Source: Lytechinus pictus
Taxonomy: Eukaryota
Assembly: GCF_037042905.1 (NCBI RefSeq)
Contig: NC_087251.1
Coordinates: forward strand, 17,734,001 to 17,798,000
DNA: 64,000 nt
Reading direction: 5' to 3'
In this document: piece by piece, positions 54,701 to 63,209 of the stretch
How the letters are laid out: each line of letters begins with the position of its first letter
Numbering within the stretch: position 1 is the stretch's first letter
The notes under the pieces: model-generated
Database searches by the model: none
The model's input: only the letters and a program-made list of their open reading frames with translations
Told to the model about the DNA's origin: nothing
Translations under genes and position numbers: made by a program

Positions 54701-57700
54701 AATATACTATTTTCAGCACTAATTTGTATCCATACTTTGGCAGCCATTTTGAAATAAAAAATGGCTGCCAGAGTCGGAAAAAAATTTTGTCTCAGAAACT
54801 TCAGGTCTTGTATTATTAAAAAACATAAAGCATTTGACATGAATATCAACTTGATTTTTTTGCCTCTGTGTCCATCTGTGGTGAAAATGCCCAGCTGTAG
54901 GTAATGTGAGCTGATTTTCTCCTTATCTACATTAACTGCAGATCTGATGTGTTATTTGGGTTATCTTTTAAGCTCTATAGCAAAAAATCAAGCGCATGGA
55001 CCCATGTTAATTTTTGCATATTTGGAATATTTAGGTGCTAAGATATCTATGTGCAAAGTATGATAAAAACAACATGGATTTTCAATGTTTGGGAGCAAGA
55101 CTACGGAACCACTCGCATTTTAGACGGTATTAACAGACTTTTGCTTGTTTTCGGTGCATTTTGGGCTGTTTCAAGCCAATGCGCAATACTTTGGACACTG
55201 ATAATTTGAAAACGAGCACATGGACCCCAAATTTGTAATGTCTTAACTTCTTTAGAATATATTTCTCTACAAATCTAGAGAGTATGATGAAAATGACATG
55301 GATTTTGAATGTTTGGGAGCAGGACTAAGGAACCATTCGTATTTTAGACATTTTGGACGGTATTAGACTTTTGCCCGTTTTAGGCGCATTATAGACTGTT
55401 TAAAGCCAACTCGCAACACTTTGGACACTGATAATTTGAAAACGAGCGCATGGACCCCATAATTTAATCATCGTAACTTCTTCAGAATATATTCCTTTAC
55501 AAATCTAGAGAGTATGATGAAAATGACATGGATTTTGAATGTTTTTTAACAGGACTAAGGAACCATTTGTATTTTAGACATTTTAGACGGTATTAGACTT
55601 TTGCCCGTTTTAGGCGCATTATAGACTGTTTTAAGCCAACTCGCAACACTTTGGACACTGATAATATGAAAACGAGCACATGGACCCCATAGTTTAAACA
55701 TCTTAACTTCTTCAGAATATATTCCTCTACAAATATAGAAAGTATGACGAAAATGACATGGATTTTGAATGTTTGGGAGCAGGACTAAGGAACCATTGGT
55801 ATTTCAGACATTTTTGGACGGTATAATCAGACTTTTACTTGTTCTCGGCGCATTTTGGGTTGTTTCAAGCCAACTCGCAACAGTTTAGACACTGATAGCT
55901 TAAAAACGAGCACATGGACCCCATGTTTTTAATATTTTAACGTCATCAGAATATATTCCTCTGTAAATCTAGAGAATATGATGAAATTGACATGGATTTT
56001 GAATGTTTGGGAGCAAAACTACGGAACTATTCGCATTTTAGACGGTATTATTGGACTTTTGCACGTTTTCGGCGCATTTTAGGTGGATTTCAATATTTTC
56101 AAGCCAACTCGCAACAGTTTAGACACTGATAGTTTAAGAACGAGCACATGGACCCCATAATTTTAATATTTTAATGTCTTCAGAATATATTCTTCTACAA
56201 ATCTGGAGAGTATGATGAAAATTACATGGATTTTGAATGTTTGGGGGCAAAACTACGGAACCATTCGCATTTTAGACGGCATTATTAGACTTTTGCACGT
56301 TTTGGGCGCATTTGGGCGATTTTCATGCCAACTCGCATCACTTTGAACACTCATAGTTAAAAAACGAGCACATGGACCCTATATTTTTAACTTCCCTACA
56401 CCTTCGATATGCATTCCTCTACAATTTAGCAGAATTTGATGAAAATGACATGGATTTTGAAAAAAGTGCAGCTTACAAAATACTTTTTTATTTATTTTTG
56501 AGTAGATTCACGTCTTTGAAGATTTGCTTTTTCCAAGTTTTTGCACCATTCTTGCCAAATGAGGGCGCTGCTTACTCCAAATATATATAGTTCTACCAAT
56601 TAAAAGACTTTCTCTTTCTTTTGTATACACTTTGTTATATATCTTGAAAATTTGATGAAGTTTGATGAGGTATCTACTGAGTAAAGATGATTTACACTCA
56701 TTTGGTGAATTCGTGAGGTCTAAGAGAGGCATAATTCTCTTGATTGCGCAAGATTGCATATCATTCAAATACGGCGACTTTTTTTTTTTGGCACTTTCAT
56801 TATGCATAGATACCAAAGTAACTCTCTGCAAAATTTGGTGAAAATGACATGGACTTCATTTTAACTGTGGAACGTCCTTAAATCTTAAGAAAAACCCCTA
56901 CATATAATATAGTTACCAAATAATCATCCAGAGGTGCTGGTTCAAGCCAGGCTTGTTTCCTTCTGTCCATATCCCTCTCTGCTTCCTGCATTGTGTAAAT
57001 AGAATTATAAACATTAATTTATGTATGAAATGTTACACATTTCTAACAAAGATATAATCTATTACCTAATTTCTGAGTTTCTGTATTTACAGGAAAGAAT
57101 CTGTAATATTCAGATGAAATGCCTATCAAACAGAGATTTCATACAAATTTGGAGCAATTCGAGCAACAGAAGGAAAGTGGATGTTTAAATGGCTTCAAAT
57201 GATAAAGGAACAGATGAGAGTAGTATGAATGGGGAAAATCCTATAATAATAATAATTATCATGATTGACATAGCAAGATTGAAATAACACTTCAAACAGA
57301 AGCTTGACCTTGTGATTCATAGCCTGGAGATTATTTATCAAGCTCATCTCCCACCCATTCTTTACCAAGCTATTTTAACTTTGGGAGATTTCAATGCTTT
57401 GAACACTACAGAAAAAAACCAAATGAACAAATCCAAAATTTTCTTCTTTGCGAGGATCATAATGTGCCCCAAAAACTTTACACTCAAGATTACAATCCTT
57501 CAAAAACTTTAAAACTTTACATTTTAATTAATATGTGGATTACCTGTCTTAGTTTCTTGGATATTTCTTTGTAATGCCTGTCAGGTGATACTTCTTGAAC
57601 AGCAGTCTGCTTCCTTGCATCATCTTTTAATCTACCAGTCTGTTAGGATGAAAAGAAGAATAATATTATTCATCCACCTTCTTGACAAAGTTTGGGGTGA

Positions 57701-58036
57701 TTTAAAACTGTGTAGACACCAAAGTAAAAGTTTTGATGGGCCAACTATTGTGCACCAAAAATATGGCGTGTGAAATGGTATTATATCTAACCTGCCTGGA
57801 TCCTCCACTGAAACTGCTGACATTCACACTTAAAGATTGATTGGTGTATATGTGTCTAACCAAATCCCTGGTCAAAATCAAATTTGAAACACGAAGAGGG
57901 AAGAGGGATGATACAAACCTGTATAGTTTGTTTGACTTGTTGGTTAAGTTCTCCAAGTTGTTGGGCTACCCTCTGTGCTCTTTTGACTGCAGGGCTAGTG
58001 GAGCCTTCTGGTTGATGATGAGACCCATTGTTTGGC
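36758..58036 (-). CDS. KIAA0586: TALPID3 (centrosomal/ciliogenesis protein), 3' 19 exons, ~1313 aa in window, 5' partial
   Basis: Exons (minus): 57919-58036, 57544-57639, 56917-56985, 51351-51592, 49758-49830, 47123-47434, 46643-46829, 45838-46175, 45085-45183, 44636-44689, 43106-43335, 42364-42497, 41423-41616, 40681-40894, 39987-40248, 39141-39355, 38688-38776, 37774-38356, 36758-37191. All are GT-AG and phase-compatible. TALPID3-like motifs: YLKHIYG..QRSTLKDAPYLHF, LIPMAIPL, LPNVDIDSI, YHGPPFPP, WVEQELMSRLISG, GLQFFVDAGQPV, a PTP-rich region and repeated SEGE. Confidence 0.88.
42935..43067. repeat. Tandem duplication, 2 x ~67 bp
   Basis: TTTTCATTGGAAT.ACTTTCTTTCTCT.CCCTTCTTTTCACTTTTTT.TAAAGACTTAAATCTATAT occurs twice. 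Confidence 0.85.
43990..44378. repeat. Polypurine (GAA/GGA)n tract
   Basis: About 390 bp of almost pure A/G in a TALPID3 intron. Confidence 0.9.
46380..46532. repeat. Degenerate (CAT)n microsatellite
   Basis: ATCATCATC-rich run. Confidence 0.8.
47516..49219. mobile_element. 1.7-kb non-autonomous TIR element with 6-bp TSD
   Basis: CACATG|CATACCTGCCAACC ... GGTTGGCAGGTATG|CACATG (14-bp perfect TIR). The interior is CpG-rich and has no transposase ORF. Confidence 0.85.
49995..50153. mobile_element. Short MITE, CAG TSD (Harbinger-like)
   Basis: CAG|GGGGTGTTTCACAAAGATT ... AATCTTTGTGAAACACCCC|CAG. Confidence 0.8.
50413..51234. mobile_element. Complete Tc1/mariner-type foldback MITE (TA TSD, ~340-bp arms)
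   Basis: TA|CAGTGCGTCCCAGAAAAAACGAAAC ... GTTTCGTTTTTTCTGGGACGCACTG|TA; long inverted arms around a ~130-bp spacer. Confidence 0.9.
52175..54892. mobile_element. Nested 2.7-kb TIR element with AGCT duplication (Sola2-like, tentative)
   Basis: AGCT|GGGCATTTTCAC ... GTGAAAATGCCC|AGCT; contains nine copies of GGTAACTGACATTAC. Confidence 0.75.
53477..54073. mobile_element. Innermost nested MITE, CAG TSD (Harbinger-like)
   Basis: CAG|GGGTGGTATTCTGAGATCCATTTTATCT ... AGATAAAATGACCTCAGAATACCGCCC|CAG. Confidence 0.8.
54985..56460. repeat. Tandem array of ~230-bp units (~6.4 copies)
   Basis: Marker CATGGATTTT at 55073, 55297, 55527, 55757, 55991, 56225 and 56449 (spacing 224-234 bp). Confidence 0.92.
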
Positions 58037-59105
58037 CTGCATGAACAGATAAAAAATGGTTGGAAATCATTTTGCTACTTGCAAAAACAAATTTCAATTG
58101 TTATTTATGATTATTTACCTGGGAAACCCTATTACATCAATTTTTTTTTTTTTAATTAATCTTCTATTACTTTCATTTCTTTGTAGAAGGGGAGGGGCAT
58201 TTAATTCTCCCCTACAACCAATCTGCACCCCCTCCACAAGCTACAAGTCTCCCCAGCCATGTTCCAAACATGGCCAGCATTATGTGTCTGTCCCTTTGCA
58301 AGAATTCCACAAATTGATACACACATGTATATTCAAGTAATTGTATTTGATTTATCACATTTCCTCAAATGTATTTTCAGTAAGTGTAGCGTCTATCTTA
58401 ATTCTCCTCATGAATATTAAAATCTTTTTACCAACCTTATTTTCTAACTAGTAAGTATAATAATATATCATATTTATGAAGAAAGAACTTAAAACTGGAG
58501 ATATGTTTTCAGAGTGCAATGCAACATTCATACTCAATGTTACATCCTGGCTGAGCAGTTCAAACAGACACTGGCTGATTAGAACAAATAGCACCCTCTC
58601 TTGGTCAAATATGCAAGTGCATTTTCCCCCGTTATGTACAAGACACAAAAGACCATTCTAGTTCTAAAATCTTATATATGGGCACAGAAAGATAACAATT
58701 AGAATTGCCCCCCCCAAAAAAAAAAAAATTGGACACATTATATAATTACCTATTCAATTAAAGGTCAATTCCATCCCAGAAAAATGTTGATTTGAATCAA
58801 GAGAGAAAAATCACACAAGCATAATGCTGAAACTTTCATAAAAATTTGATAAAAGTTGCGGCATTTTAAAGTTTTGCTTATTTTTCACAAAACAGTTATG
58901 TGCTTATACTCAGAGATATGCACATCCTGTTCGGTATGGAAATGAGGGGACTGATGACATCACACACTCACTATTTCTTTTGTATTTTATTATATGAAAT
59001 ATTTTAATTTTCTCCTCATTATCATGTGTATCAAAGTTTTATTTATCCCTGAACATGTGGAATTACCACTGTTTTAACATTTTGGGGTTCAATCAAGTTG
59101 GTCAT

Positions 59106-59811
59106 GGTTAATGAATAAGTGTTTGGTACCGCAAAATTGTAAAATAGCCTTAAAAACGGATATACTGAAGCTTTTCGACATGCACTCATCGGAGTAAAAT
59201 TGCATGAATGACTTAAACGCTAGAGAAAAACAATATATAATAGAACCAAAATAGACAATGGACGCTAAATAGCGAGCCGTGATTGGTTGTCAAGTAAACA
59301 AGTTAGGCTTGGTACCAGCCGTATATTGAAGCGAAGCAACAAAATAACGCAATGGTTCTTACGAACTCCTTGTGGCGGCACAGAATCGGGTCTGTTAGCT
59401 GGATATATGTTCCCTCGAGCATGCGCAAATGAGTGAAACACCTTGCTCGGCTGAGCACCTTAAACCAAGATGAACAGTATTGTTCAGCAAGTGGTTAGCA
59501 ATATAGCCAAACTACTACCACCATCTGTCGCAGTACTAGTGGTACGTTTTCTGCATGCGCGCCGAGGTCGTGAACGCGCGCTAATTCGACAATTTCGGAT
59601 AGAGGCGGGCACATGTTGGCTAATGCGGTCTGCTAAACGTTGGGTTGTACTGTAAGCCCTATGTACCGAGCTTCACAACGGCACTTAAACTCGTAAATAA
59701 CATTACTGCTATGAGAGATAGGGAGCACGTCCTTTCGAATAGACGAGAACATTCTGTGTGTAGTAAATACCACACATGCTTCAACGCTAGGGAAGGCACT
59801 AGATATTGCTT
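59106..59811 (-). mobile_element. 5'-truncated Penelope-like retroelement: frameshifted GIY-YIG endonuclease plus 3' region
   Basis: 8-bp TSD TTGGTCAT (59098-59105 and 59812-59819). Minus-strand translation across frameshifts: KDVLPISHSSNVIYEFKCRCEARYIGLT / TQRLADRISQHVP / IANHLLNN / FKVLSRARCFTHLRMLEGTYIQLTDPILCRHKEFVRTIALF. Confidence 0.85.
59163..59196 (-). ncRNA. Minimal type I hammerhead ribozyme-like motif (U4C variant)
   Basis: Minus-strand RNA UACU-CCGAUGA-G(UGCAUGU)C-GAAA-AGCU-UC-AGUA: stem I UACU/AGUA, 1-bp stem II, palindromic AAGCUU stem III, UC cleavage site. Confidence 0.65.
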
Positions 59812-60352
59812 TTGGTCATTGTTGTCATATCTGTATTAATTGAAATATGGTATAATTCAAACAATAAAAAAAAATAGTGAGTGAGGAACATCATCAACTA
59901 TCATTTGCATATTACTGAGTTGTACATATAATAATTTATCCCATTTTGATGAAATTTTCAGCGTTATGCTTGTTGGATTTTGTCTATTCTTCGAATTAAC
60001 AGTTTTCTGGGGTAGACTTGACCTTTTAAGTGTGGTTATATTTTGTGTTGCAGTTCCCCTCCATATCTCAATAGAACTTACTTTGTAGATATACATTTAT
60101 ATTTATATTCATTGTGATTACATAAGTCCATTATTATATTTCCCTTTCTTTATTAATTTTCATACAATATATCAATAATTTTGTCTTTAAATATATATTT
60201 TCTACATCAAGATTTGATTAGGGCTGTTCAAATTGATATCTTTATTGTTTTCATGAGAAGTATTATCATTACAATTAGTTCATCATAATTAATTTTTCCA
60301 TATTCTTTGTTTTCATTCAATCATTATTTTATTCCAATCATTGACAGCCATT

Positions 60353-61232
60353 AATTGAATTGAATTGAATTTATTCAAACCAGTCAAAAGGATGCAAAGT
60401 ACAAACAAAATAAATGGTTACATAATAAAGAACTGAAAATGACAGGTTTGGGACCCCAAAGAAGCACAGCTTGTAATCAGGGGCTCCTGCAAATGATATT
60501 TTACTCAAACATGGAATGACTATGAGAAAAAAAAATTACAAGGTATTTAAAGATCACAACAGGAACATTACCCACACGCAAGCATACGCACAATCACCCA
60601 GACAAACACACACATTCACACTCCAAACGTGTCATCCCCAGGTGCAACTAACAACTGGTCTTAAATTCATCAAGTAGGTATTTATGACATAATTTCTTAA
60701 ACCGAGACAGGGTACTGCTCCTTCTTATATCAGCAGGACACATATTCCATTCTTTAACGCAAATTGTTCTGAAGGATTTCAATGTAGCATTAATTCTAGC
60801 AAAGGGTTGGTGAATAAGATGTCTCTGACGTGTGTTATAATTATGAATCTTAGAATTATCCACAAAAGTGTCTTGTAAAACAATTCAGCAAGACCATTTC
60901 ATTAAATGGTAACATATTCAACTGCAAAGAAAGTGGGGAACTCGGAGCCAGATAATTTGAATTTGTTACATATCTTAAAGCTTTCTTTTGAAGAACTTGT
61001 AGTTTACTTACATGAGTCCTATATGTATGCCCCCAAGCAATATTGCAATACATTTAATGTGGCACAATTAGAGCATTATATAAAGAAACCAATGTTCGTT
61101 GAGGTAAGAAATATCGTACTTTTGATATCACACCAACATTACGAGATACTTTAGAACATACATTATTAAGGTGATAATTCCATGACAAATATTCATCAAC
61201 TGTGACACCAAGAAATTGCACACTTGAACTAA
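60353..61232 (-). mobile_element. 5'-truncated, frameshifted LINE (CR1/L2/Crack group): end of RT, C-terminal domain and 3' UTR
   Basis: Minus strand VQFLGVTVDEYLSWNYHLNNVCSKVSRNVG, YCNIAWG..LQVLQKKALR, HNYNTR, KEWN..P.DIR...FKK. The 3' UTR has a stem-loop (GAGCCCC..AAGC..GCTT..GGGGTCC) and AATAAA plus a (TTCAA)n tail. Confidence 0.85.
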
Positions 61233-63209
61233 ATTCCCTTGCCAGGGAAAAAAGCCTAAAGCTACCAAAGTCAACGAACTATATAATTGAAGCTTACACA
61301 ACTAAAATCAAGAAATAGAAAGTTCAAGAGAATAAGGCTGCTCATGTAAGCAGGTAATTAAACACGAGCTGAAAATACGAGTGGCATAGTGAATGAGCAG
61401 GGAGGGGGAGACTCTTATACAACAAGGCAAACCGGAACACCACATCCATTAAAATATTTTGTATACATAACTTATTTTAGCAAAGAGAAGTGTAGTTGAT
61501 ATTGATTTGAATATAAGTTTTACGAGTGTATTGGAAAACATTATGAAGTGTATTGAATACAAAATGAACGGGAAAAATAGAATGAAATAAAAAAATAGAA
61601 TGGGGGAAAAAAATGTTTCATATCATACTGTACAGTTTTTTATAATTTTTTTCCGACTTCGGTAGAGAAGGGCAAAACTGAATTATTCCTTTTAGTTTTG
61701 TCTTTAAAAACTTTGTTTTAGATGTCCTCTGAGTATGAAGATAATTCAGGACAAGATGCCCCCTAAAGAGACTCATTGAAAGGGTTCCATATGGGATATA
61801 TCTAAACAGAATAGGGCATGTGCACCCCCTCCCACCACTGGCACTCAAATATTCATTACTAAAATATTAGCATCATTTCAAATCATGCAAAAAATCCACC
61901 ATAAACATCAACTTTTTTTCATTCTTCAGTGATATTTTACATGAATAGGAGATATGATTCCCTTTTATGCCCCCCTCTCTTGAAAAAAAAAAAATTACCC
62001 GCCAATATCTTAATTTTTACAGTTCATGAGTACTCTCAAGACACTACTCATCATGAACCAAGAGCATCCCTCAGAATAATGTGCTCCCTTCATGTGGTTT
62101 GTGTTTGAATGTCTCCAAGAAAGCTAGCCTGGATGACAGACAGCCAGCAAGCCAAGCAGAAACAGGGACAGAGTACGCTGTTTAACGACATTAAAGAAAC
62201 TGCATAATACATGAAGCCGAGGAGCCCTGCCTGGCTTTGAGGATGCTTCATCTTGTCAATGGAGAATAGCAAATGAGCATTTGGGGGATTTAATCAGGTT
62301 CAAATAGAATGAATGGTTGACGGCTGATCAGCCTTGAGGGAAGAGTGGATGAACAACGCAAGTTATTAAATTGAGTTGTTTCACTGTGCAGACACGTGTA
62401 ACTGAATTCATTTCAAAGTCTTCATCTGGGTGGTGATTTATTTGGGCTTTCTTTTAAATGGAATAGAGAAACACGTATGAAGCTATTGATGATTCACATT
62501 ATCATGGATTAAATCTTCTTCCATGTAAGCAATGAGAATTATTAATGCACAGCTGGATCAACTCTCCAAGTTACCCATGATTTTATGAGTAACTATTCTA
62601 ATGTTAAAACTTAAATGAGATACCCCGATCTGTCCCGTTTGAACATACTGGGAATAAATTTCTTTCATACTTCCTCATAACCTTGCATTAAGATGCTTGA
62701 AAAAAAAATGGAATCCACAATTGGTCTTATGGGAATAAAAATGACTGAGAGGCTAGAGCGGCACCTAAGATAGATCACCAGTTGTTCATGAATTTGTGCA
62801 ACATTCAGTTTAACCTGGTTTAATCAAACACTGCCCTAGGACTATTGCATGGAAAGGACACAACAGTGACAATCTTCCTAAACTTCTTGCAAATGAAATT
62901 CATTCAGATGCTCTTACTGCTATTGAACTTGTTCATGTATATAAATGTCATTGTGATTGTAACATTTAAGTTTGTGGTATGAATGTTGTACAGAGGAGCA
63001 GAAAAACTGTTATGATTCTTGTATATCAAAAGACTGCATGATCAAGGAAGGAATTCCAGTACAATTTCAGTAGCTCAAGACTGGAGGTGGTAATATACAA
63101 GGTGGTTGTGACATAATGGCTTTAATGCAGAGGAACATGATATTAATTGAAAATGATATAAATAACACTTGCTACATGTAAAAAAAAAATCCAAAAAAGA
63201 TGTTGTTAA

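Follow-up and report, generated by a model that had tools for sequence, protein, structure and literature searches.

Results

A 64,000-nucleotide stretch of the Lytechinus pictus genome (G000:C7:17734001-17798000, here referred to as the window) contains a hammerhead ribozyme motif in which the U expected at core position 4 is replaced by C, and the question raised by this locus is when and where that replacement arose. A first-pass annotation had offered two answers: an inactivating change at this one copy, plausibly favored because the motif has the sense orientation of a host pre-mRNA, or a natural core variant shared by a whole family of mobile elements. To decide between them, we compared the window copy with its genomic copies, with related families, and with the gene in which it was said to lie.

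A minimal type I hammerhead motif with C4

The motif occupies window positions 59163 to 59196 on the minus strand, and its assignment draws on the sequence, on the family alignment columns, and on cross-family covariation. Its RNA is the reverse complement of these positions; the first-pass annotation had quoted the RNA correctly but had left the strand unstated. Read in this direction, the motif consists of a 4-bp stem I (59196-59193 paired with 59166-59163), the core C3 C4 G5 A6 U7 G8 A9 (59192-59186, with C4 at 59191), a stem II reduced to the single pair G10.1-C11.1 (59185/59177) followed by a U·U mismatch, the 3' core G12 A13 A14 (within GAAA), and the palindrome AAGCUU (59173-59168), which contains A15.1-U16.1. 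The non-G nucleotide C17 lies at 59167, and the motif parse puts the predicted cleavage point at the junction of C17 and 59166. Nucleotides C3, G5, A6, G8, A9, G12, A13, and A14 of the type I core are all present, and the required U4 is not. The motif sits 53 to 86 nt from the 3' end of the element that carries it (59110), close to the 60 to 90 nt given previously, and its earlier description as the minimal type I motif of a Penelope-like element (PLE), in which stem II is a single pair, stem III is palindromic, and position 4 is C, was borne out.

A genome search with a 34-place pattern, allowing at most one mismatch, returned 196 matches, compared with none for the reversed control, which argues that the motif is not a chance occurrence and that the original call at 59163..59196 was real. 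The hammerhead-model check suggested by the annotation, in contrast, came back empty: an Rfam scan of 57000-61000 at E ≤ 10 gave three chance-level matches and no hammerhead. As the scan covered the window copy alone, its miss may reflect the models rather than C4. Folding of 59100-59300 indicated a stability that is not unusual (z of +1.6), and three raw-read runs (~6/100 of each) showed no listed accumulation of read starts or ends where cleavage is predicted; the depth there was 4 to 5 reads per strand, drawn from many copies, too little to bear on cleavage.

The motif lies in a truncated Penelope-like element

The motif is part of a 5'-truncated PLE (59110..59811, minus strand) that comprises the end of the endonuclease (EN) open reading frame (ORF), a 3' pseudo-LTR with the hammerhead, and a tail. 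The EN portion (59342..59811, minus strand) is a broken C-terminal GIY-YIG endonuclease frame with stops and frameshifts. It ends near 59342 and the motif follows ~145 nt further on, a placement shared with related elements that corresponds to the pseudo-LTR downstream of the EN ORF where PLE minimal hammerheads are found. The element is bounded by a likely target-site duplication, with its 3'-side copy at 59098..59109 and its 5'-side copy, read directly from the sequence, at 59812..59823 (11 of 12 bases match). Its insertion target was another repeat, whose empty-site form is present at loci L004 and L044. The repeat around the element (58916-59103 and 59812-60030) is abundant, and at L028 a further copy of the element has inserted in this repeat, close to the equivalent point and in reverse orientation.

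For the Penelope/Poseidon clade, the criteria given in PMC8557442 include the CCHH and DKG motifs and the lack of a conserved zinc-finger linker. P0001, a protein of 641 residues with reverse transcriptase (RT) and endonuclease domains, shares 79% identity with the less broken EN frame of copy L014, and it is through P0001 that the element groups with the EN-bearing PLEs of the Penelope/Poseidon clade, the Pfam scores being below the curated cut-offs. In an alignment read by eye, the CCHH motif in EN and the DKG motif are present and no conserved zinc-finger linker between RT and EN was seen; because of this combination, the family is probably an endonuclease-bearing Penelope/Poseidon family. 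Neither an RT-bearing nor a full-length copy was found among the 69 scored of 821 candidates, a lower bound, and the RT matches among the scored candidates belong to other families (30 to 41% identity). No relative was found in viral contigs. Non-CpG divergence from the family majority is ~3.0% for the window copy and has a median of 4.7% for long copies, and the family looks old and inactive.

Comparison with the N-termini of P0013, P0016, L155/L156, and L079 identifies the tail (59110..59165, minus strand) as the start of the element's ORF. Most copies carry the start AUG at 59163-59161, in the 3' strand of stem I, where the window copy has AUA; an AUG in stem I also occurs in L079 and in a sister family of the same genome (described below). 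The 3' ends of the copies form two clusters, 59132-59144 and 59110-59117, both past the cleavage site. All 66 of 66 scored segments extend past this site, although the set was chosen for motif coverage and is therefore not independent support. The family majority is in frame through the whole hammerhead (59205-59110, minus strand), with AUGs upstream, in loop II, and in stem I. In this frame U4C falls at a third codon position and is synonymous, and the frame is also open in the sister family, which has U4.

C4 is the majority state across the family

The survey pattern had N at core positions 4-5 and at a control CpG (positions 11.1-12). A hand tally of the 100 matches listed of the 196 yielded 84 zero-mismatch rows, among them the window copy and a small number of inverted duplicates. 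Among the matches listed, C4 occurs in 65/84 of these rows, and positions 4-5 read CG in 53, TG in 15, CA in 12, TA in 2, and AG in 2. C4 is also the majority among the listed copies on C1-C21 and C37. Because C4 and G5 form a CpG dinucleotide, we examined the minority states for signs of CpG decay. Copies with U4 (TG) and with G5A (CA) are balanced (15 versus 12; P = 0.70). The control CpG in the same 84 rows reads CG in 60, TG in 9, CA in 10, and other dinucleotides in 5, and C>T changes are not significantly more frequent at position 4 than at this control (17 versus 10 of 84; P = 0.21). Other CpGs in family copies, when pooled, show 12% and 13% decay, and the derived changes of the five long U4 copies are shared no more than in random sets (P = 0.59). 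Considering the TG/CA balance, the similar behavior of the control and other CpGs, and the lack of clustering, the U4 copies look like products of CpG deamination. A hidden U4 subfamily was also considered and was ruled out by the same lack of clustering among the five long copies.

A BLAST-selected set of 29 copies, from 30 loci with one near-duplicate dropped, has C4 in 26/29, U4 in 2/29, and a gap in 1/29. Aligning genomic copies at position 4, as the annotation had recommended, thus gives a consensus of C. Derived changes held in common split the family into three or more subfamilies, each with C4 as the majority, and the window copy matches the family majority at 34/34 motif positions. 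The other core positions, the palindrome, and the four stem I pairs are intact in the majority of the 29 copies. These sequence comparisons indicate that C4 is the ancestral state of the window element's family. The proposed family-wide variant is supported by the counts in both sets, while inactivation favored by the host at this locus is contradicted by a C4 that predates the insertion and is the majority genome-wide.

Rare changes are equally frequent in the motif (3.2%) and its flanks (3.1%), indicating neutral decay after insertion. Recurrent, subfamily-level changes were found at 0/30 non-CpG motif columns compared with 13/203 columns outside, a difference that is not significant (P = 0.38) and that hints at purifying selection on the motif in the active lineage. 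Such constraint could come instead from the overlap with the ORF start.

Stem I covaries across families, and no tandem partner is found

The fold was assessed in a cross-family alignment of 9 rows, of which L117 was misregistered by the aligner and two row pairs are close kin that inflate covariation. Over these rows, 5/6 stem I pairs are changed on both sides, giving a stem I covariation of 0.41 that was reached in 0/500 shuffles and compares with ≤0.14 in slid controls. This covariation across families marks the fold as an authentic hammerhead that has been selected for in the group as a whole. G10.1-C11.1 is GC in 9/9 rows, and U10.2-A11.2 is paired in 7 rows, gapped in 1, and broken only in the window element's family. 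Stem I has 4 pairs in this family compared with 6 in the sister family and the L075 family. The window motif has neither the additional nucleotide at the A9/G10.1 junction nor the long helix II that occur in other families of the genome.

In the monomer, the forced hammerhead fold (+8.5 kcal/mol) is modeled as less stable than a competing hairpin (-3.1 kcal/mol), a preference expected for dimer-type motifs. The palindromic stem III, AAGCUU, can pair in a dimer, with a modeled duplex energy of -4.3 kcal/mol. The stem II/loop II segment (59185-59180, minus strand) is also self-complementary and its pairing is stronger (-6.7 kcal/mol), and unconstrained cofolding of two copies preferred the loop II dimer over stem III. 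In the sister family, this segment corresponds to a perfect 6-base palindrome. In our reading of these models, the loop II register is not common to the families and would compete with G10.1-C11.1. Among 58 loci of 1.6 to 5 kb, none had a same-strand partner (10 inverted, 45 single, 3 without a called motif), and the window holds a single motif copy. The earlier statement that the motif works as a dimer is therefore not possible in cis here.

C4 is derived from U4

The sister family (L154-L158) shares the same 3' end design and has U4 in 10/10 matches, six of which, on C26 and C61, are possible duplicates. It is represented by short pseudo-LTR stubs only, without EN sequence within 900 bases. 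Seven other families in the same genome keep U4, as shown by L068-L072 and by a set of 10 loci in which 8/8 of the motifs called have it. No motif was called in L161 or L167, and L073 lacks one. More distant relatives came from metagenomes (80 loci, 36 to 56% identity), where 33 distinct motifs were called in the 63 downstream stretches inspected. U4 is present in 32/33 of these, and the lone C4 is in a visibly decayed copy. A narrow genome pattern designed for any further C4 family whose stem III reads GCUU gave 4 matches, compared with 2 for the control, and so none beyond chance; three of the four are decayed copies of the window element's own family.

A tree made up of unnamed EN regions grouped the window family with P0001 (100/100) and did not resolve the order of the families. 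Because U4 is general among the relatives, a polarity that does not depend on a rooted tree, we conclude that C4 is derived and that U4 changed to C before the family spread. C4 was then retained through at least three subfamilies. The family spread to a few hundred copies with C4 in its hammerhead motif.

The element is likely in a TALPID3 intron

A TALPID3-like gene is on the minus strand, as is the motif. Its most 5' mapped coding exon (57919..58036, minus strand) is preceded by an AG acceptor, and the motif lies 1.1 kb upstream of its boundary at 58036. None of the 15 splice joints listed of 65 spans the element. The annotated TALPID3-like proteins have their 5' mapping limit at 58097, and one protein model begins in intron sequence and continues across the acceptor into the 57919-58036 exon. 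The longer annotated homologue lacks PF15324 positions 1 to 316, and in a spliced contig the mapped exons account for all but ~1,000 of the 1,623 nt upstream. Eight candidate frames for upstream exons, from 63.9 kb of the window to 8 kb beyond it, had no Pfam match, and none of four other homologues mapped upstream of 56988. Given the AG acceptor, the missing PF15324 positions, and the uncovered contig sequence, the motif is quite likely within a TALPID3 intron. The sense orientation given by the annotation is correct; the intron it had stated as fact is probable.

The TALPID3-like protein models of two sea urchins look 5' truncated (window 56917-58097, minus strand). Further upstream, at 60648-61301 on the minus strand, are fragments that we take to resemble the C-terminal part of a LINE reverse transcriptase. 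RNA reads over this interval have a strand bias opposite to that of the TALPID3 exons.

Discussion

On balance, we favor the reading in which the motif is a pseudo-LTR hammerhead whose U4C change occurred in a source element and left a weakened but tolerated ribozyme. U4 changed to C in that element before the spread, and the lineage then split into subfamilies that all kept C4. A cytosine lacks the imino proton that U4 uses in the U-turn contact of the core. Loss of this contact, in a motif that also has a single-pair stem II, just 4 bp in stem I, and no peripheral tertiary contacts, would make the ribozyme much weaker than those of its relatives. Cleavage after C17 would be slow if it occurred at all, and would require dimerization through AAGCUU or assistance from the element's protein. 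In an active tandem element, two motifs would pair through AAGCUU. Weak cleavage would be tolerated if, as we infer, new copies arise from internally primed reverse transcription of uncleaved RNA; under this model U4C would carry a low cost and hence be fixable. The window copy would be an inert lone passenger undergoing neutral decay, and appreciable cutting of TALPID3 pre-mRNA by it is improbable.

A natural U4C hammerhead was reportedly described by Ambrós and Flores in 1998 in a viroid, PLMVd. Natural U4C lowers hammerhead activity in vitro considerably, an effect that tertiary contacts are proposed to offset; the viroid variant stayed infective, which the authors credit to such contacts (PMC3088659). 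The natural core substitution is the same as in the window family. The viroid case, however, is a sequence variant of a full hammerhead in which the contacts are proposed to compensate (PMC3088659), whereas C4 here is fixed in a retroelement family, in a minimal hammerhead without recognizable tertiary contacts. PLE motifs usually lack such contacts (PMC6155905). In a mutational scan, CUGA-turn mutants had low activity, except for the C3-G8 swap (PMC9901934).

Compared with the PLE hammerheads of Cervera and de la Peña 2014 (PMC4209133), the window motif shares the pseudo-LTR after the EN ORF, the short helix I, G10.1-C11.1, the palindromic 15.2-16.2/loop 3, and the occurrence mostly as lone truncated copies, and family-level core variants (U3-A8) exist there as well. 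It differs in having C4, no extra nucleotide between A9 and G10.1, and a one-pair rather than a long helix II; the searchable supplement text of that paper contains no CCGA core. The small PLE hammerheads of Lünse, Weinberg, and Breaker, judging by the title and citing reviews, likewise have a palindromic stem III and cleave as dimers, and variants at position 4 may already be present in their alignments. The Poseidon element PAc of the green anole (Frangieh et al. 2024, PMC11167929) resembles the window element in the overlap of its ORF start with the hammerhead and in a tail produced by genomic copies that terminate at either of two points beyond the cleavage site. The published PAc hammerhead has C3 and G8 and cleaves with protein assistance, and the element has been reconstituted, whereas the window family has no intact copy among those scored. 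Hammerhead mutations did not affect insertion by the anole PLE in vitro, and its new copies arise by internal priming on uncleaved RNA (PMC11167929). PLE hammerheads, their dimer logic, and family-level core variants (PMC4209133) are therefore already known, as is natural U4C (PMC3088659). A retroelement family with fixed C4 was not found in the literature searched, which on PLE hammerheads included accessible parts of PMC6765202, PMC6466107, and bioRxiv 10.64898/2026.07.22.740005 and did not extend to the alignments of Lünse et al. CCGAUGA is likewise absent from the 10 best-ranked literature matches on hammerhead retrotransposons.

It is possible, but rather unlikely, that the ribozyme was already dead in the active lineage and that its sequence was kept only for its overlap with the start codon, an in-frame N-terminal extension, and the protein-binding or RT-initiation signals. 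The AUGs in stem I and, in frame, in loop II, the third-codon position of U4C, and the three separate departures from the fold of the relatives all fit such a loss, as do the dispensability of cleavage for insertion in vitro (PMC11167929) and the success of Naiad/Chlamys PLEs without canonical hammerheads (PMC8557442). However, all other core positions are kept across the subfamilies, the open frame through the motif is shared with the U4 sister family and so is not specific to C4, and natural U4C retains activity in the viroid (PMC3088659).

We consider it unlikely that C4 is instead a competent core variant in the tandem transcript, helped by a protein chaperone or by loop II pairing and cleaving at a U4-like or a selected lower level. 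The anole PLE hammerhead, which cleaves only with protein (PMC11167929), and the viroid precedent (PMC3088659) would be consistent with such a core, and so would the fixation of C4 in three or more subfamilies whose motifs show no recurrent change and the greater strength of loop II self-pairing over stem III. Against it, the selection signal is not significant, a second fixed-C4 lineage was found neither in the genome with the narrow pattern nor in the metagenomes, where the one C4 among 33 motifs is in a decayed copy, and the loop II register is not one that the families share. Least credible, to the point of being very improbable, is an origin of U4C at the window locus favored by its sense orientation to TALPID3 pre-mRNA: the strands do agree, but C4 is the majority genome-wide and in all subfamilies, the window copy matches the majority throughout the motif, and the 1 to 17% divergence and unrelated flanks of the C4 copies exclude recent duplication of this locus.

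The C4 family is a natural experiment: it multiplied and split into subfamilies while carrying a change that should reduce activity, and the same genome holds a sister family that has U4. Its spread fits the idea that PLEs need no efficient self-cutting; it has also been proposed that hammerheads may simply parasitize PLEs (PMC8557442). A C4 motif that proves weak or dead would support the dispensability of cleavage in vivo, and an active one would widen the accepted hammerhead core. Descriptors fixed on CUGANGA would score the C4 family as hammerhead free. For TALPID3 itself, there is probably no consequence.

A related PLE family in metagenome contigs (L082:1961-2002, loci L085-L153) has U3 opposite G8 in 21/25 distinct motifs, which suggests that relaxation of the core is not unique to the C4 family within this PLE group. 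L079, a tree neighbor of that family, has U3-A8, and the U3/G8 family may represent a wobble state, now fixed, on the path linking C3-G8 and U3-A8. A broader proposal, which we regard as doubtful, is that this PLE group repeatedly fixes "defective" cores, either because a protein-assisted dimer compensates or because slow cleavage is selected to spare template RNA; if true, these cores would be natural, tuned, and protein dependent, and CUGANGA descriptors would miss them. A young family with a canonical core is also present in the genome, as an array of seven RT-bearing PLE copies spaced ~2.8 kb apart (G000:C10:11885065-11903204), with four copies on one strand and three on the other, most of them with long open frames.
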